Assembly (NCBI GenBank): GCA_035623825.1
Contig: DASPSR010000022.1
Coordinates: 151,858 to 215,857 of the forward strand
Direction: 5' to 3'
DNA from: Nitrospirota bacterium
GTDB lineage: Bacteria > Nitrospirota > UBA9217
DNA length: 64,000 bases
The translations under genes were made by a program, and so were the position numbers. Shown one piece after another: positions 56,453 to 64,000 of the stretch. Below the pieces are notes generated by a model. That model saw only the letters and a program-made list of their open reading frames with translations. It was not told where the DNA came from and ran no database searches. The stretch's first letter is position 1, and each line of letters starts with the position of its first letter.

Positions 56453-57514
56453 TCAAAGTGGCCGCAGACAATCGGACCGCCACTCTTGTCTTTCTTCGTA
56501 CTTCACGATCTGTTTGCCCTTGACTATTTCACCGATACAGTATGCTTTTTCACCGAGCCGGCCGGCTTTTTTCACGACGGCTTCGGCATGTTTCGCAGGC
56601 ACGACGAGGATCATCCCGATGCCCATGTTGAAGTCGCGATACATTTCCTTATCGTCCACGCCAGCCTTCTTCTGAAGCAGCTTGAAGACGGGGTGAATGT
56701 CCCAGGTCCCCTTGCCGATGAGGGCTTGAGCGCCTTTCGGGAGCATGCGCGGCGTATTCTCGGTGATCCCGCCGCCTGTTATGTGCGCCATTCCACGGAT
56801 GTCGAATTCCTTCAGCAGGGTCATTATCGTTTTCGCGTAGATTCGCGTGGGCGTGAGCAGCACCTCGCCAAGCGGTTTCCCGAGCTCAGGCAGTATGTCG
56901 TTCACCGTATAACCCGAAGCTTCGAGCAGGACTTTGCGTACGAGGGAGTATCCGTTGCTGTGCAGGCCCGAGGATGCAAGCCCTATGAGCTTGTCTCCGG
57001 GTTTTATCTTTGATCCGTCGATGATCTTCCTTTTCTCTACGATGCCTACGGCAAACCCTGCCAGATCATATTCGTCCTCGCCGTAGAATGACGGCATCTC
57101 GGCGGTCTCACCGCCGATGAGCGCGCAACCCGCCTGTTTGCAGCCTGTGGCGATGCCCTTGACGATGTCCGCATGCTCCAGAGGTTTCAATTTGCCTGTG
57201 GCGAGATAGTCGAGAAAGAATAGCGGCTCTGCACCCTGGACGATGATGTCATTCACGCACATAGCCACGAGGTCAATGCCAACGGAATCATGACGGCCAG
57301 TAAGGAATGCGATCTTGAGCTTCGTTCCCACGCCGTCAGTGCCGGATACGAGGACCGGGTCTTTATATTTTTTGAGTGCGAAAAGCCCGCCGAACCCGCC
57401 AATGTGCGTCATGACCTCGGGCCTGAAAGTAGATTTTACATACGGCTTTATCTTCTGGACGAAGAGGTCACCGGCGTCGATATCAACGCCTGCATCTTTG
57501 TAGGTTATGGACAT
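56453..57514 (-). CDS. purM: Phosphoribosylformylglycinamidine cyclo-ligase
   Basis: [45 protein letters not shown]. Confidence 0.97.
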
Positions 57515-57616
57515 ACCGTATCCCTCGGAAATTTTCCACGATAGTACCCGTAACACGGGGTGATGTCAATATGTTTGCCCGGCGCTGTACCCTGTGCCGT
57601 AACGAATGATGTGCGT

Positions 57617-58414
57617 TCATGCTGATGCCTGCACCAGTTGACGGAACGACGGGTGGTATGGCCCTTTCACGATAGCGCCCGGTTTTAAAAGCTCCTCGGT
57701 GGGCTGGAGGCCCACCCGTATGACCCTGATCCCGGATTGCTCGAATCTCCCCAGTGCTACCTTACACCACTTTACCGCCTCTTCGAGCGAGAGGGGGGCA
57801 TACTGGCCGGCATAAAATAACTCTTCGAGGGGCGTATCCCTGATGACAAGGGCGGGATAGATGCGGACGACGTCCGGCCTTAAATCCATTGTCCTGTCGA
57901 CGGTCGTGAAGAACCGTTCACGCGAATCCCCGGGAAGACCCGGCATAAGCTGGATGCCGATGGAAAAAGCACGTTTCCTGAGGAGGGCGACCGCATCAAC
58001 CGTATCGGCTGCAGTGTGGCCTCTGCCGGAGCGTGAAAGGACGTAATCATCCATGGATTGGGCCCCGAGTTCCACGGTCGACACCCGGTGATCCCTAAGA
58101 AGGGATAGGATCTCCTCGGTTATGCAGTCCGGCCGCGTCGAGACGCGGATGCTTTCAACCTTTCCCGCTTCGATGAACGGTTTGACGGCCGCGAGATACC
58201 TTCTCTGTATCTCAAGAGGGAGGGCGGTAAATGTTCCGCCGTAGAACGCGACCTGGACGGGCTTTTTCTTATTGTCGGTTTTCAGGTAATTGGCGATCTT
58301 TGCGGGAATCGATTCCGGGACCGGTGGATTATGCTCGCCCGTTATCCTTTTCTGGTTACAGAACACGCACTGGTGCGGGCAGCCTGCGTGAGGGATGAAA
58401 AAGGGGATGATCAT
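57617..58414 (-). CDS. Radical SAM protein (Elp3/YhcC-like)
   Basis: GCPHQCVFCNQ, FYGGTFT, STRPD, VELGAQS, QLMPGLPG. Confidence 0.9.
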   Translation of the reverse strand: MIIPFFIPHAGCPHQCVFCNQKRITGEHNPPVPESIPAKIANYLKTDNKKKPVQVAFYGGTFTALPLEIQRRYLAAVKPFIEAGKVESIRVSTRPDCITEEILSLLRDHRVSTVELGAQSMDDYVLSRSGRGHTAADTVDAVALLRKRAFSIGIQLMPGLPGDSRERFFTTVDRTMDLRPDVVRIYPALVIRDTPLEELFYAGQYAPLSLEEAVKWCKVALGRFEQSGIRVIRVGLQPTEELLKPGAIVKGPYHPSFRQLVQASA

Positions 58415-58474
58415 AAGTCGGAAGAAAGATGTCAGCTTGAAGACAGCAGACTTTGAGCGTTGAGCGAACGCTGA

Positions 58475-59188
58475 TCAGTGCCTGTCCAGCTTTCTCTCTC
58501 CTTTGCTCTCAATTAGTTTTTTCAGCGCTTCCTTCGCAGCGCGCTGCTCTGCTTCTTTCTTGCTCCTGCCGATGCCGCGGCCGCACAATATGCCCTTGAT
58601 CCACACCTCTACTTCAAACTGCTTCTGGTGATCGGGGCCGGTCTCAGACACGATTTTGTACTCCGGGAGCCGTTTGATCCGCTCCTGGCAAAGCTCCTGG
58701 AGTTCCGTTTTGTTGTCGAGGGCACCGCGCGAGGCGCAGGTCCGCTTGATCATGTCTTCGAAGAACCGGACAACAAAAGCAGCTGCCGCTTCCTTGCCCG
58801 TGTCGAGGTAAATGGATGCAATGAGCGCTTCGAGGCAATTGGCGAGAAGTGAATCTTTATCTCTGCCACCTGTCTGTTCTTCTCCTCGGCCCAGCAGGAT
58901 ATAGTCGCCGAGCCCTATCTTGCGGGCAACTGCGGAGAGGGCAGATTCGCTCACGACAGCCGCGCGGAGCTTCGACATGTCCCCCTCGGTCGAATCAGGG
59001 CATGCCGTCATGAGATATTCGCTCACCGCGAGATTGAGGACGGCGTCCCCGAGGAACTCCATCCGCTCATTGTGATAGGAGACCCTGTATTCGTTTGCGT
59101 AGGACTTGTGCGTCAAGGCCCGCTCGAGAAGCGCGATGTTGCTGAATTGATAAGCGATCCGCTCCTGAATTTCCGAGAGGGGAGGCAT
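58475..59188 (-). CDS. rnc: Ribonuclease III
   Basis: ALTHKS, NERMEFLGDAVL, dsRBD KTELQE...GPDH..F, SKKEAEQ; ATG 59188 lies 1 nt after the fabF stop. Confidence 0.95.
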   Translation of the reverse strand: MPPLSEIQERIAYQFSNIALLERALTHKSYANEYRVSYHNERMEFLGDAVLNLAVSEYLMTACPDSTEGDMSKLRAAVVSESALSAVARKIGLGDYILLGRGEEQTGGRDKDSLLANCLEALIASIYLDTGKEAAAAFVVRFFEDMIKRTCASRGALDNKTELQELCQERIKRLPEYKIVSETGPDHQKQFEVEVWIKGILCGRGIGRSKKEAEQRAAKEALKKLIESKGERKLDRH

Positions 59189-59189
59189 A

Positions 59190-60431
59190 TTACGTCCGGA
59201 ATTTCTTGAATACCAGACAGGCGTTCGTACCGCCAAAGCCGAAGGAGTTCGACATGGCCACATCTACCTGCACCGTTCTCGCGGTGTTCGGGATATAGTC
59301 CAGGTCGCACTCCGGGTCCGGGTTTTCGAGGTTGATGGTTGGCGGAAGGACTCCCCGGTCCAGGGCAAGGACCGAGATGACAGCTTCCACGCCTCCCGCG
59401 GCGCCGAGCAGATGGCCGGTCATCGATTTTGTGGAGCTGACTGGTATCTTATACGCATAATCGCCGAAAACGGTCTTGATGGCAGTGCTTTCGAGCTCGT
59501 CGCCGAACTTGGTCGAAGTTCCGTGGGCATTGATGTATCCCATCTCCGTTGGAGCGATACCTGCGTCCTGAATCGCCATCTTCATGCATCGTGCAGCTCC
59601 CTCGCCTTTCGGGGCTGGCGCGGTTATATGATAGGCATCACCCGAGGCCCCATAGCCGATCACCTCTGCGTAGATGCGAGCGCCGCGCTTCACTGCGGAT
59701 TCCATTTCCTCGAGGATGACGACCCCCGAGCCTTCGCCCATTATGAACCCGTCGCGGTCAGCATCGAAGGGGCGGCTGGCGCGCTGCGGCTCCTCGTTTC
59801 GTGTTGACAGCGCCTTCATGGCGTTGAACCCTCCGACGCCGAGGGCGCAGATGCAGGATTCCGTGCCGCCGGCAATCATTGCATCAGCATCGCCACGCTG
59901 GATCCATTTGAAGGCATCACCGATGGAGTGGGTCCCCGTGGCACAGGCCGTGACGACACAGATATTGGGTCCCTTGGCGCCATAACGCATGGAAAGGTTC
60001 CCTGCGGCCTCGTTGACGATGAGCATGGGGATGAAGAATGGCGTTATTTTGCGGAAACCCCTCTCCAGGTAAATCTTGTGGTATTTTTCTATGGCGGGGA
60101 GACCGCCCATCCCGGCGCTCACTATGACGCCCACGCGATCGGCGTTCTCAGGGGTGATCTTGAGGCCGGAATCATCCATGGCCATCTGGCTTGCCGCGAT
60201 CGCCAAATGAATGAAGCGGTCCATCTTCTTGATCTCTTTCTGATCGATGTACAGCGCAGGGTCGAAGCCGTGTATCTCACCTGCGATTTGGGTTGGAATG
60301 GTCTTGTCATCGAACTGCGTGATAGGACCGATGCCCGACTTGCCCTTGACAAGTCCATTCCATGTCTTCTCCGTATCGAGTCCGACCGGGGTGACCATCC
60401 CGACGCCGGTGACCGCCACTCTTCTCTTCAA
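59190..60431 (-). CDS. fabF: 3-oxoacyl-ACP synthase II
   Basis: [43 protein letters not shown]. Confidence 0.97.
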
Positions 60432-60449
60432 AAGGGAGCACCTCCTGCC

Positions 60450-60515
60450 AAAAAAATCCGAAAAGCCAAAAAACCCTTTTCCAGCGATTGCGTGAAAGGT
60501 TCTCTGGCTTTTGGA
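60450..60515 (-). terminator. Hairpin plus U-tract after acpP (partial terminator or stabiliser)
   Basis: Imperfect stem TCCAAAAGCCAGAGAACCTTT...AAAGGGTTTTTTGGCTTTTCGGA followed by T7. Confidence 0.5.
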
Positions 60516-60556
60516 ATTACCTGTGTTTCTGAAATTTGACTTCGTGTATGACGCCG

Positions 60557-60793
60557 TTACTTGGACTTTGCTTTGATATAGTCGATGGCGTTCTGAACGG
60601 TGGCGATCTTTTCGGCGTCTTCATCGGGGATCTCCACGCCGAACTCCTCCTCGAGGGCCATCACGAGCTCCACCGTATCGAGTGAATCAGCGCCCAGGTC
60701 GTTTACAAACGATGACTCTGGCTTCACATCACCTTCGGGTACGCCGAGTTGCTCAGAAATGATCTTTTTCACTTTTGCGTCAACATCTGCCAT
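60557..60793 (-). CDS. acpP: Acyl carrier protein
   Basis: [20 protein letters not shown]. Confidence 0.97.
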
Positions 60794-60874
60794 TGGTATC
60801 CTCCTGTGGTTGCGTTCATTTCGCTGAACTTGATTCTCTATTTTGAATTCTGGACGAGAAGCGTGATAAAGCTC

Positions 60875-61615
60875 TTACATGTACATGCCGCCGTTCACGT
60901 GGATCACCTGGCCGGATATGTACGATGCCCACGGCGATGCGAGGAACCGCACTGCGTTCGCAACGTCCCCGGGCGTACCGAGCTTGCCCATGGGTATCTG
61001 TTTTGCGAGCTCGGCCCGTACATTCTCGGAGAGGGCCTGCGTCATGGCTGTGTCGATGAATCCGGGCGCTACCGCGTTCGCCGTGATGCCGCGATTCGCG
61101 TACTCCCGGGCAATGGTCTTTGTGAGGCCGATGAGACCGGCTTTGGACGCGACGTAATTCGCCTGACCGGCATTGCCCATGGCGCCGACGATCGAGGCGA
61201 TATTGATGATTGTTCCGCCGCGCTGCTTGGCCATATGCTTAAGCGCCGCTTTGGAGCAGTTGAAAGCGCCCTTCAAGTTAATGCTGAGCACCAGGTCCCA
61301 ATCCTCTTCTTTCATCCGAAGGATGAGGCCGTCCCTGGTGATGCCTGCGTTGTTCACAAGGATGTCGATCCTGCCGAGCATCTCGACCACCTGATCGACC
61401 ATCATCGTCACTTCGGCTGACATGGCAACGTTGGCCTTAAGTGCCGCGGATTTCCTTCCCTTGGCTTCGATGTCCGATGCCGTCTTCTGCGCGGACTCGA
61501 GGTTGACGTCGCAGACGGCGACGTCGGCTCCGTCGGTTGCGAGCGCGAGCGCGATTTCCCTCCCGATACCCTGTGCTGCGCCAGTAACGAGTGCTATCTT
61601 GCCAGATAAGGTCAT
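60875..61615 (-). CDS. fabG: 3-oxoacyl-ACP reductase
   Basis: TGAAQGIG, NNAGITRD, YVASK, VAPGFI. Confidence 0.96.
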   Translation of the reverse strand: MTLSGKIALVTGAAQGIGREIALALATDGADVAVCDVNLESAQKTASDIEAKGRKSAALKANVAMSAEVTMMVDQVVEMLGRIDILVNNAGITRDGLILRMKEEDWDLVLSINLKGAFNCSKAALKHMAKQRGGTIINIASIVGAMGNAGQANYVASKAGLIGLTKTIAREYANRGITANAVAPGFIDTAMTQALSENVRAELAKQIPMGKLGTPGDVANAVRFLASPWASYISGQVIHVNGGMYM

Positions 61616-61733
61616 TATCTCTCCGAAATTAATCCAAGCAGGTTGACATGCAGGCAGGAGCGCAAGGACGCCTCGGAAACCGAAATTTCCGACTCCTGCA
61701 TTGGCATCTTCCGCGATGCGAAATGCCGCTTAT

Positions 61734-62666
61734 TTATATTCCCAGCGCGCTGAGTGTTTCGCTCATGCTTTTCTGGTCTTCGACGTTCAACACTGTTGCT
61801 TCCTTGACGATACGCCTCACGAGGCCCGAGAGTACTTTGCCCGGCCCTATCTCGATGAAGGTGTCGCAGCCGTCTGCGGCCATGTTCCTGATCGAATCTT
61901 CCCAGTAGAGCGGGGAACCGATCTGCTTGACGAGCGACGGTCTGATCTCCGATGCCGTACGCAAAAACCTTGCATCTGCATTGTTTACGATCGGCATGCT
62001 CAGGTCGCTGATATTCACTTTTGCAAGTTCTAGCGCCAATCGGTCACCGGCCCGTTTCATCATGCTGCAGTGTGATGGAACGCTCACCGGCAGGGGAATT
62101 GCTCTTTTTGCGCCCGCAACCTTCGCCAGCTCCATGGCCTTTTCCACAGCTTGCTTCTCACCGGCGATCACGATTTGCCCTGGGGAGTTGTAATTGGCAG
62201 GGGCAACTATACCATTTTTGGCCGCTTCATGGCAAGTTTTTTCTACATCTTTGCGCTCCATGCCGATAATGGCTGCCATGAGCCCTGTTCCTTCGGGAAC
62301 AGCCTCCTGCATATATCGTCCGCGCTTCTGGACTAGCCCGATGACGTCTTTGAGATCGAAGCCGCCGGCAGCTGTTATCGCGGTATATTCGCCGAGGCTA
62401 TGGCCCGCCGCGGCGCTTGCGGTGAGCCCGCGCCGTTCAAGGGGACGAAGGATGGCTATGCTCGCAGCAAGAATGGCCGGCTGCGTATGCTCCGTGAGAT
62501 TCAGCTTATCAACGGGGCCGTGCAAGCAGAGTTGTGCCAGATCGTAACCGAGAACAGAACTCGCGGCATCAAAGACATCCTTCGACTCTTGAAAATTCTC
62601 TATGAACTCCTTGCCCATGCCCGGGTACTGAGATCCTTGGCCTGGAAAGATGAAGGCGATTTTCAT
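61734..62666 (-). CDS. fabD: Malonyl-CoA:ACP transacylase
   Basis: FPGQGSQ, TQPAI, GHSLGE, PSH, EIGPGKVL. Confidence 0.96.
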   Translation of the reverse strand: MKIAFIFPGQGSQYPGMGKEFIENFQESKDVFDAASSVLGYDLAQLCLHGPVDKLNLTEHTQPAILAASIAILRPLERRGLTASAAAGHSLGEYTAITAAGGFDLKDVIGLVQKRGRYMQEAVPEGTGLMAAIIGMERKDVEKTCHEAAKNGIVAPANYNSPGQIVIAGEKQAVEKAMELAKVAGAKRAIPLPVSVPSHCSMMKRAGDRLALELAKVNISDLSMPIVNNADARFLRTASEIRPSLVKQIGSPLYWEDSIRNMAADGCDTFIEIGPGKVLSGLVRRIVKEATVLNVEDQKSMSETLSALGI

Positions 62667-62668
62667 TG

Positions 62669-63880
62669 TTATCCCCGCAGTTCCCTGAGTTTCTTTATCA
62701 TGATAGGAACGACTTCGTGGACGTCGCCAACGATGCCGTAGGTAGCGACGTTGAAGATAGGCGCATCGGGATCCTTATTGATCGCAACGATCACTTCCGA
62801 AGACTGCATGCCGGCGACATGCTGGATCGCACCGGATATGCCGCAGGCAATGTAGAGCTTGGGACAGACAGTCTTTCCGGTCTGCCCCACCTGGTGGGAG
62901 TAGGGGATCCACCCTTCGTCAACGGCGCCACGAGTTGCCGCAACAGCGCCGCCGAGCACTTTCGCCAGTTCCTCCAGCAGCTGGAAATTCTTGGCTCCGC
63001 CGAGCCCGCGGCCGCCGGCCACTATTATGTCCGCTTCGCATATGTTCACCGTCTCGCCCAGTTCTTCGATGGTCTTGATGACCTTGGTGCGGAGGTCGCC
63101 GGATTGCGTGTACTTGACTTCGATGATGTCTCCGGTCCGGGAGTCATCGCGGGGGGCTGGTTTCATGACCTTGTGCCGGACTGTTGCCATCTGGGGCCGG
63201 TGGTTTGGCGTCACGATAGTGGCCATGATGTTGCCGCCAAAGGCCGGACGGGTCTGGTGAAGGTGGCCGGTCTCTGCGTCGATGTCGAGCGCCGTACAGT
63301 CAGCGGTCAGGCCTGTATAAAGCGCTGACGCGACCTTAGGAAAGAACGATCTGCCGATGGCCGTTGCGCCTGCAAGAATGATCTCAGGCTTGTGCTGCTT
63401 CGCAAGCGTCGTCAGAATAGCCGCGTAGGAATCATCGTTGAAGTCTTTGAGCGCGGGATCGTCGGCAATGTATACGATGTCCGCGCCGTAGGCTATGAGC
63501 ACTTTTGCCTTTTCTCTTATGCCATGTCCGATGAATACTGCTGATAGCTTGGTATTCTTTTTATCGGCGAGCTTCCTGCCTTCACCGAGAAGTTCAATCG
63601 CTACACTGGAAACGCTGCCCTTGTGCTGCTCGGCAAAGACCCATACTCCCTTGTATGCAGAAAGATCCTTCGCCGCTGCCACGACCTCTTCGCTGGTCCG
63701 CTCGATTGCCTTGAACTCACAAACCTCGATACAGGCTCCGCACATGGTGCAGGCCTCGGTGATAAAGGCCTTGCCGTCCCGCATCTCAATCGCGCCGAAC
63801 GGGCACGCAGAAACACATGTCTCGCACGCCGTACATTTATCAGATATGACTCTAACGCTCACGGGTTGCTCCTTGGACAT
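62669..63880 (-). CDS. etfA: Electron transfer flavoprotein alpha subunit with N-terminal 2x[4Fe-4S] ferredoxin domain
   Basis: [12 protein letters not shown] and [11 protein letters not shown], then [30 protein letters not shown]. Confidence 0.93.
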
Positions 63881-63953
63881 CAGAGGATAGATGGCAGTGG
63901 ACAGACAAGGCTAAGACAAGTGCGTCATCTGATCGCTTGTCTTCCGCCGTCTG

Positions 63954-64000
63954 TTACATCAATGACTGCTCTTTAAGCTTGTTCACGACCTGCTCGACCT
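63954..64000 (-). CDS. etfB: Probable 3' end of ETF beta subunit (runs off the window)
   Basis: ...VEQVVNKLKEQSLM* resembles an EtfB C-terminal helix and lies upstream of etfA; only about 15 codons visible. Confidence 0.55.
   Translation of the reverse strand, partial: VEQVVNKLKEQSLM

Follow-up and report, generated by a model that had tools for sequence, protein, structure and literature searches.

Reduction of the enoyl-acyl carrier protein (enoyl-ACP) pulls each cycle of type II fatty acid synthesis (FAS II) forward and is a classic antibiotic target, and four classes of enoyl-ACP reductase are known. In a 64,000-nt stretch of DNA from a Nitrospirota bacterium (C27:151858-215857, hereafter the window), a fatty acid synthesis operon contains genes of an electron-transfer flavoprotein (Etf), which raises the question of which enzyme carries out this reduction there. 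The original prediction, made from the window, had described the order etfB-etfA-fabD-fabG-acpP-fabF-rnc on one strand with a very short gap between etfA and fabD, two [4Fe-4S] motifs in EtfA and no fabI, fabK, fabL or fabV. It had proposed that the Etf works with an enzyme resembling acyl-CoA dehydrogenases (ACAD), either as an electron-bifurcating enoyl-ACP reductase or as a supplier of acyl primers. This gene arrangement was confirmed, including the two motifs: all operon genes lie on the minus strand and exactly 2 nt separate the etfA stop TAA from the fabD ATG. No enoyl reductase is found in the window, all matches of the genome to the short-chain dehydrogenase/reductase (SDR) and NMO families being located outside C27:151858-215857 except fabG. 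ACAD, etfB, fabH and plsX, the genes expected upstream, lie on a second contig, C7, in the order that had been foreseen, and the whole operon, C27 and C7 combined, reads yceD-rpmF-plsX-fabH-ACAD-etfB-etfA(2x[4Fe-4S])-fabD-fabG-acpP-fabF-rnc.

We propose that ACAD, EtfB and EtfA (the trio below) form a complex of the Bcd/CarCDE type which probably serves as the FAS II enoyl-ACP reductase, and which probably reduces ferredoxin. That the complex has the reductase role and also bifurcates is a joint claim that we put forward more tentatively. With the same reserve, the trio may represent a fifth class of enoyl-ACP reductase, a bifurcating one that would be the sole reductase of many strict anaerobes in more than 10 phyla. 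We infer enoyl-ACP reduction from the operon slot, the distribution and the lack of alternatives; the ACP-bound substrate, the direction of the reaction and the reduction of ferredoxin are likewise predicted for the trio. The upstream genes foreseen by the original prediction are observed, and the function that it proposed is kept here in conditional form. A full-text literature search, with subscription journals and supplements outside its scope, brought up no account of an ACAD/Etf enoyl-ACP reductase or of such an operon.

Occupants of the position between fabH and fabD

In relatives of the window genome, ordinary enoyl reductases are found where the trio lies. In three genomes of sister families (G025, G034 and G030) a FabK scoring above its cut-off is located exactly between fabH and fabD. 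In the closed genomes G116 and G138 of family f16 the position is held by a 269-aa SDR (L158:8553-9362 in G116; same position in L159) with a Y-x6-K motif, whose top model is FabL with 161 bits vs a cut-off of 328. The position between fabH and fabD in Nitrospirota is occupied by FabK, by a FabL-like SDR or by ACAD-etfB-etfA. Given that the trio fills the slot of an ordinary enoyl reductase in these relatives, it is probably an undescribed, energy-saving enzyme that closes each round of fatty acid elongation, and the most economical explanation is non-orthologous displacement, with the trio in place of the FabK or FabL-like SDR of sister lineages.

Family f16 carries none of the ACAD orthologue, FabI, FabK and FabV, and its SDR is missed by the E. 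coli FabI query at E ≤ 1e-30; thus a statement of "no FabI" does not cover FabL-like enzymes. A separate search for FabL-like enzymes covered the window genome (G000), G036, G103, G128 and G106. The f16 SDR is in itself a divergent enoyl reductase candidate, possibly left unnamed by routine annotation.

Of 41 relatives, 28 carry an ACAD orthologue of at least 70% identity; FabI (E ≤ 1e-58) occurs in 10 others and an above-cut-off FabK in three, one of which also has FabI. The adjacency of etf and fab genes on which the original prediction was built is conserved: fabH adjoins ACAD in 26 of the 28 orthologue loci, and the linkage recurs across phyla as described below. The exceptions are G036, which is closed, and G027, where ACAD lies elsewhere and etfB-etfA(Fd)-fabD are still adjacent.

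Kin are not independent, so that families and not genomes are the unit to be counted. The distribution was taken over an even sample of 151 Nitrospirota genomes, all of them except that of the window being at least 90% complete. The ACAD orthologue (E ≤ 1e-150, 69-95% identity) is found in 84 of the 151 genomes, belonging to 14 families. FabI (E ≤ 1e-30) is found in 49, of which 48 belong to seven families without an ACAD orthologue, the 49th being a weak match (33% identity) in an ACAD carrier, G114. Above-cut-off FabK occurs in four genomes, all without ACAD, and sub-cut-off FabK-like proteins in five, of which G142, G154 and G153 carry ACAD; FabV was found in none of the 151. Even a weak FabI-like or FabK-like match is seen in only 4 of the 84 ACAD carriers, and across these 151 genomes the ACAD orthologue is hardly ever found together with canonical FabI/FabK. 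The 67 genomes without an ACAD orthologue at this threshold comprise 48 with FabI, three more with FabK, one with a FabK-like protein and 12 of family f16. The rest are G006, whose ACAD contains a scaffold gap, and G151 and G182, which have none of the four enzymes. The idea that G006 has a FabK-like gene in place of a disrupted ACAD was rejected, since the break is a run of 10 N.

In the closed genomes G103, G125 (family f15) and G128 (family f17), ACAD is present and no FabI, FabK or FabV was found. The only NMO-family matches in these three genomes are of about 47 bits and fall in 494-aa frames, whose size and matched region suggest IMP dehydrogenase. The search for FabL-like proteins covered two of the three, G103 and G128, and was negative in both.

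The window genome itself (3.24 Mb in 67 contigs, 89.65% complete, 0.7% contamination) was searched for each known reductase. It has seven PF13561 matches including the operon fabG. Of the six other SDRs, five show Y-x3-K and the sixth, of 197 aa, has no clear motif; their top models are of the FabG type, and FabI and FabL are absent among the 25 best NCBIfam models of each. The best match of the E. coli FabI query in this genome has an E value of 6.6e-11, that of a FabL-like query from the same phylum 9e-13, and the FabL model gives nothing over its cut-off. For FabV there is no match to PF12241 or PF12242 in the genome; PF12241 detected nothing anywhere, controls included, and PF12242 was used instead, a model that works, as it finds the FabV of G055, from another phylum, at 119.7 bits. 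The best scores on the FabK model (TIGR03151) are 150.2 and 104.6 bits vs a cut-off of 453.1. In agreement with the original prediction, FabI, FabL, FabV and a cut-off-passing FabK were thus not found in this 89.65% complete genome, and two sub-cut-off NMO-family proteins, of 329 and 367 aa, remain.

These two proteins speak for an explanation that we consider unlikely, in which the true enoyl-ACP reductase is an NMO/FabK-like or unrecognised enzyme and ACAD-Etf acts on acyl- or enoyl-CoA. The 367-aa protein is indeed present in 23 of 24 genomes of the family. However, its orthologues, 64-78% identical and found in distant phyla, are accompanied by a canonical operon FabK in G025 and by FabI in G063, and nine ACAD carriers of other phyla without another known reductase, among them the chromosome records G044 and G047, are without a homologue of it as well. 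The 329-aa gene is not common to the genus, three other genomes of which lack it, and in G103, G125 and G128 the NMO family is represented solely by the weak matches given above. Furthermore, this explanation leaves the equivalence of slot with FabK and the FabL-like SDR unaccounted for. As to their surroundings, the 329-aa gene lies beside genes for a Pfam-unmatched protein and a DUF7657/DUF7654 protein, unrelated to lipid synthesis, and the 367-aa gene beside those for a PGA_cap protein and a zinc phospholipase C-like protein.

Beyond Nitrospirota, at least 564 ACAD relatives came out of a scan in which each species was represented by a single genome, and the best 80 loci, 65-91% identical, were analysed. 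According to their record labels these include Nitrospirota, Thermodesulfobacteriota/'Deltaproteobacteria', Bacillota, Omnitrophota, Planctomycetota, Verrucomicrobiota, Lentisphaerota, Margulisiibacteriota, Saganbacteria, Rokuibacteriota, Ratteibacteria and Edwardsiibacteriota. In 51 of these 80 loci fab genes lie on the same strand within 6.5 kb, and in 39 of the 51 etfB-etfA follow ACAD directly downstream. The trio without such fab genes is seen in 13 of the 80, two of these lying about 4 kb from a fab operon of divergent orientation, and ACAD stands alone in 16. The gene orders include fabH-ACAD-etfBA-fabD, fabH-ACAD-etfBA-fabG, fabF-(rnc)-ACAD-etfBA and plsX-ACAD-fabD, a variety which indicates that the linkage to fab genes has been kept or re-made through rearrangements. 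Six loci of the Thermodesulfobacteriota type (L118, L122, L126, L113, L117 and L120), whose ACAD orthologues belong to one clade, read plsX-ACAD-fabD-fabG-acpP-fabF with no etf adjacent. In a quick maximum-likelihood IQ-TREE tree the 80 orthologues form one tight group, whose subclades largely follow phyla and which a long branch separates from two 45%-identical paralogues. Among 31 carriers outside Nitrospirota, 15 or 16 have no FabI, FabK, FabK-like protein or FabV, FabL-like enzymes not having been searched there.

The same gene orders bear on the other half of the original prediction, namely that the trio makes acyl-CoA primers for FabH, for example by reducing an enoyl-CoA to butyryl-CoA or to a branched acyl-CoA. 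The ACAD gene directly follows fabH, and the relatives of ACAD are short-chain enoyl-CoA reductases, both of which fit this role. Yet many loci have ACAD after fabF/rnc or before fabD with no fabH beside it, and true reductases fill the slot in sister families. Primer supply would leave enoyl-ACP reduction without an enzyme in the window genome and in G103, G125 and G128, and no nearby hydratase or dehydrogenase genes would provide the enoyl-CoA precursor, the 3-hydroxyacyl-CoA dehydrogenase domain being missing altogether from many carriers (24 of 45, see below). Primer supply is less well supported than the reductase role, and we hold it to be quite improbable.

Features of the three proteins and the reaction they may catalyse

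ACAD matches Pfam Acyl-CoA_dh_N, _M and _1, all above cut-off. Its catalytic Glu, E363 in the YEGT segment at 362-365, is kept in all 46 orthologues aligned. The closest solved structure is the Bcd chain 5OL2_C (423 bits), CarC reaching 325 bits, and the top NCBIfam model is the acryloyl-CoA reductase subunit AcrC with 475 bits vs a cut-off of 640. Models of carrier-protein-dependent ACADs are unmet (MbtN 89 bits, cut-off 700; RedW 269, cut-off 650; PigA 249, cut-off 500), these scores all being weaker than those of the CoA-type models. The protein is under strong constraint: different genera of the family retain 81-95% identity in it, and its conservation equals or exceeds that of fabH at 21 of 25 loci.

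EtfB, with 261 aa, is as long as CarD (262) and C. difficile EtfB (260) within one residue. Its top five solved relatives, at 210-254 bits, are CarD, LctB and the EtfB of C. difficile, T. maritima and A. fermentans, all from bifurcating or confurcating complexes, in contrast to about 90 bits for the non-bifurcating Etf entries (human, Paracoccus and Methylophilus). The segments DGDTAQVGP at 122-130 (b-FAD), RAFAG at 87-91 (NAD, RxFxG) and SPT at 221-223 were located in it, and in the adjacent EtfBs of other loci they are found in 48/48, 42/48 and 40/48 cases respectively. Variants in the conserved b-FAD, NAD and SPT segments of EtfB are described in the available text of a study of Ldh-EtfAB (PMC9232219).

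EtfA carries CxxCxxCxxxC at residues 16 and 44 and is built of a ferredoxin domain, then an ETF domain, then a FAD-binding domain. Its full-length alignment with CarE (6FAH_A), which starts at residue 8 and takes in the two-cluster ferredoxin domain, scores 431 bits, and its top NCBIfam model is of the AcrABC type (365 bits, below cut-off). The segment TRPAFGGN at 210-217, a candidate site for the arginine that contacts N5 of the bifurcating flavin (R205 in LctC), is identical to the aligned CarE segment. Downstream of the ACAD orthologue in other loci, 48 of 50 EtfAs have the ferredoxin domain. As judged from these comparisons, EtfB and EtfA carry the sequence marks of bifurcating, NADH/ferredoxin-linked Etfs. 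According to the available text of PMC9232219, it is through ferredoxin domains of this kind that electrons pass between the bifurcating flavin and external ferredoxin.

In the proposed mechanism, NADH would reduce the flavin of EtfB (b-FAD). One electron would then pass through the shuttle flavin of EtfA to the FAD of the dehydrogenase and on to the C2=C3 bond of trans-2-enoyl-ACP, and the other would leave through the two [4Fe-4S] clusters of the N-terminal domain of EtfA to ferredoxin. In sum, the trio might catalyse 2 NADH + Fd(ox) + enoyl-ACP -> 2 NAD+ + Fd(red) + acyl-ACP. The NADH couple lies at about -320 mV. For the crotonyl-CoA/butyryl-CoA couple a value of -10 mV is given in the accessible part of PMC9232219. 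Given the gap between these two potentials, enoyl reduction could bifurcate and return reduced ferredoxin.

ACAD-family enzymes normally dehydrogenate, and ACAD could accordingly run in the opposite direction, oxidising acyl-ACP in the manner of FabX so as to introduce the double bond of anaerobically made unsaturated fatty acids, with Etf removing the electrons. FabX of Helicobacter pylori offers a precedent, being a flavoenzyme that contains an iron-sulfur cluster and has acyl-ACP as its substrate, as the available text of PMC8626469 describes it. Against this, a high-potential acceptor such as a quinone reductase partner is missing from the operon, the Etf belongs to the NADH/ferredoxin type, and enoyl reduction would again be without an enzyme. 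In addition, the near-exclusion between ACAD and FabI/FabK and the common slot favour a reductase, and we regard the oxidative role as very improbable.

Several observations weigh against a bifurcating enoyl-ACP reductase. The nearest relatives of ACAD by sequence, Bcd (5OL2_C) and the AcrC model, use CoA esters; the window genome is incomplete (89.65%); and the 329-aa or the 367-aa NMO-family protein could be a divergent enoyl reductase. Among the 51 fab-linked loci, 12 have no adjacent etf, some of these being cut by contig ends, and in two genomes with a fab-operon ACAD without etf (G061 and G063) the EtfAs encoded elsewhere, at 48% identity, all lack the ferredoxin domain. In the 31 carriers outside the phylum, FabI occurs in three (G063, G066 and G067) with a weak match in G051, above-cut-off FabK in one (G058), sub-cut-off FabK-like proteins in nine and FabV in one (G055). 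Bacteria commonly have two enoyl reductases side by side, and such co-carriers therefore weaken the reductase reading and do not overturn it. With regard to bifurcation, the Etf of Clostridium propionicum is cited in the available text of PMC9232219 as non-bifurcating though closely related, so that likeness to bifurcating Etfs is no proof of bifurcation. Lastly, the window genome has a fadD-thiolase-fadB cluster, whose products are an acyl-CoA synthetase, a thiolase and a fadB-like hydratase/dehydrogenase of 706 aa, and no acyl-CoA dehydrogenase gene adjoins it; the operon ACAD could then also serve beta-oxidation.

This cluster, together with the CoA dependence of the best relatives of ACAD and the presence of FabI, FabK or FabV in some carriers of other phyla, is what speaks for CoA esters as substrates. 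The trio would in that case be a beta-oxidation dehydrogenase or a fermentative enoyl-CoA reductase, and its placement among fab genes would reflect co-regulation of lipid turnover, a combination that, like the NMO/FabK-like reductase it goes with, seems to us unlikely. Indeed, the trio in the operon is flanked by fabH and fabD and not by genes of CoA-ester pathways. In four Bacillota loci ten genes flanking the stand-alone trio are unrelated housekeeping genes, with no crotonase, hydroxyacyl-CoA dehydrogenase (hbd) or thiolase (thl) among them. The 3-hydroxyacyl-CoA dehydrogenase domain (3HCDH_N, E ≤ 1e-25) is absent from 24 of 45 ACAD carriers, including the complete or closed genomes G036, G027, G013 and G047. 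Moreover, relatives that have beta-oxidation clusters possess a separate ACAD in a frame of about 600 aa, which in G019 lies 3.4 kb from the fadB-like gene. The assignment of the trio as a probable enoyl-ACP reductase is the one that we retain.

The only other ACAD domain of the window genome belongs to a 2642-aa fusion protein. Its N-terminus is a FAD-dependent oxidoreductase (Thi4/Pyr_redox-like), with a faint match to the ETF-QO 4Fe-4S domain at 636-668. Onward it has the N, middle and C domains of ACAD at 1358-1898, ETF at 2087-2191 and the FAD-binding domain of ETF_alpha at 2506-2587. It resembles an all-in-one dehydrogenase, Etf and Etf oxidoreductase, which is unusual.

Assembly, transcription signals and composition of the locus

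The positions of the operon genes and of the other genes discussed are given in Table 1. The usual downstream neighbour of fabF is rnc, and the longest open reading frame of rnc shares 74 nt with the end of fabF (window 59190-59263); the overlap suggests that the true rnc start is probably later, at an internal start codon. The acpP product is 90-96% identical among relatives of the family.

Table 1. Location of the operon genes and of other genes of the same genome; positions without a prefix are those of the window.
Feature	Position	Strand	Evidence
etfB 3' end (last 14 codons + stop)	63954-63998	minus	translation; cut by contig end
etfB complete, 261 aa	L001:380-1165 on contig C7	minus	Pfam ETF 169 bits
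etfA, 403 aa	62669-63880	minus	Pfam ETF 167 bits, ETF_alpha 126 bits, Fer4 in two stretches
fabD (malonyl-CoA:ACP transacylase)	61734-62666	minus	Pfam Acyl_transf_1 120 bits
fabG (3-oxoacyl-ACP reductase)	60875-61615	minus	TIGR01830 333.6 bits vs cut-off 297.75
acpP (acyl carrier protein, 78 aa)	60557-60793	minus	Pfam PP-binding 65.9 bits
fabF (3-oxoacyl-ACP synthase II)	59190-60431	minus	TIGR03150 670.6 bits vs cut-off 493.75
rnc (RNase III)	58475-59263	minus	Pfam Ribonucleas_3_3 138.6 bits, dsrm 79.6 bits
329-aa NMO-family protein	L004:1249-2238 = C25:31366-32355		whole FabK model aligned, 150 bits
367-aa NMO-family protein	L003:1486-2589 = C13:109525-110628	minus	105 bits on FabK model
fadD-thiolase-fadB cluster	L149:5430-10867 = C37:27429-32866	minus	
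2642-aa ACAD/Etf fusion	L002:2519-10447 = C17:11518-19446	plus	

The end of the window is the end of contig C27, and the start of C7 overlaps it by 428 nt at 91% identity (window 63573-64000 vs L001:1-426). From there C7 carries, onward on the same strand, the N-terminus of etfA, the complete etfB, ACAD (385 aa), fabH, plsX, rpmF and yceD. Given that the genome holds a single etfA besides the C27/C7 overlap and that relatives have the entire stretch on single contigs, the break is attributed to strain variation in the metagenome assembly and not to two loci; this break within the etfB-etfA junction is best read as two co-assembled strains at one locus. A public DNA contig of 956 nt is exact on L001 1-214 and extends 742 nt beyond the start of C7; it fits a continuing etfA and by itself makes no join of C7 to C27. 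Public peat metagenome contigs show many variant positions over the operon locus.

Promoters and terminators were scanned for as consensus matches only, and the counts of such matches do not exceed those of shuffles. A sigma-70-like site matching at 12/12 positions lies upstream of yceD and one matching at 10/12 ahead of plsX. A separate promoter inside etfA driving fabD, which the original prediction had named as an arrangement that would undo it, was looked for with the same sigma-70-like consensus and none was found, nor does the consensus scan give a terminator-like site on the coding strand at window positions 57500-64000. In the rpmF-plsX gap (L001:4531-4640, minus strand) rpmF is directly followed by a GC-rich hairpin and then a T-rich run, and the 10/12 site before plsX overlaps the end of rpmF. 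There are hints that plsX and the genes downstream have a start of their own besides read-through from yceD-rpmF.

The GC content of ACAD-etfB-etfA and its value at third codon positions (GC3) are those of the neighbouring genes. A recent horizontal transfer of the trio was considered and rejected on this ground and on that of the ACAD tree, which largely follows phyla.

Significance and comparison with known systems

If the trio is a bifurcating enoyl-ACP reductase, it would supply the reductase that is missing when the metabolism of Thermodesulfovibrionia, Thermodesulfobacteriota, Omnitrophota, Margulisiibacteriota and other anaerobes is reconstructed, and electron bifurcation would for the first time be seen within an anabolic core pathway. 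Each round of elongation would yield reduced ferredoxin, so that the redox drop between NADH and the enoyl thioester would not be wasted, and in organisms whose life is close to the thermodynamic limit, lipid synthesis would be tied to the pool of ferredoxin. Insensitivity of the carriers to FabI-directed inhibitors would also be predicted.

The caffeyl-CoA reductase-Etf complex CarCDE of Acetobacterium woodii (6FAH) is the best solved match of both Etf subunits (CarD 254 bits, CarE 431 bits), and the two-[4Fe-4S] ferredoxin domain of CarE has its counterpart in the EtfA of the trio. In contrast, CarC is a poorer match of ACAD than Bcd is (325 vs 423 bits), and the trio is flanked by fab genes and not by genes of caffeate activation. 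With Bcd-EtfAB of Clostridioides difficile (5OL2) the trio shares the gene order dehydrogenase-etfB-etfA, ACAD scoring 423 bits against 5OL2_C with the Glu of YEGT kept, EtfB 233 bits against 5OL2_B and EtfA 301 bits against 5OL2_A. It differs from this system in lying between fabH and fabD and not with genes for crotonase, hydroxybutyryl-CoA dehydrogenase and thiolase, in the extra N-terminal two-cluster ferredoxin domain of its EtfA, and in its proposed substrate, which would be ACP-bound and of all chain lengths.

AcrABC of Clostridium propionicum provides the best NCBIfam models (NF042972, NF042971 and NF042970; ACAD 475 bits, EtfA 365 bits), although the scores of the trio are all under the equivalog cut-offs (640, 475 and 600). 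The Etf of C. propionicum has an insertion that may block ferredoxin binding, as stated in the available text of PMC9232219. Unlike FabI and FabL, the trio is not an SDR. FabK, the FMN-dependent enoyl-ACP reductase II (TIGR03151), shares with the trio its operon slot and its proposed role, and no relation of sequence or fold. FabK is a single NMO-type protein that uses NADH only, whereas the trio would bring three subunits, three flavins as predicted and two iron-sulfur clusters to the same position in the operon.

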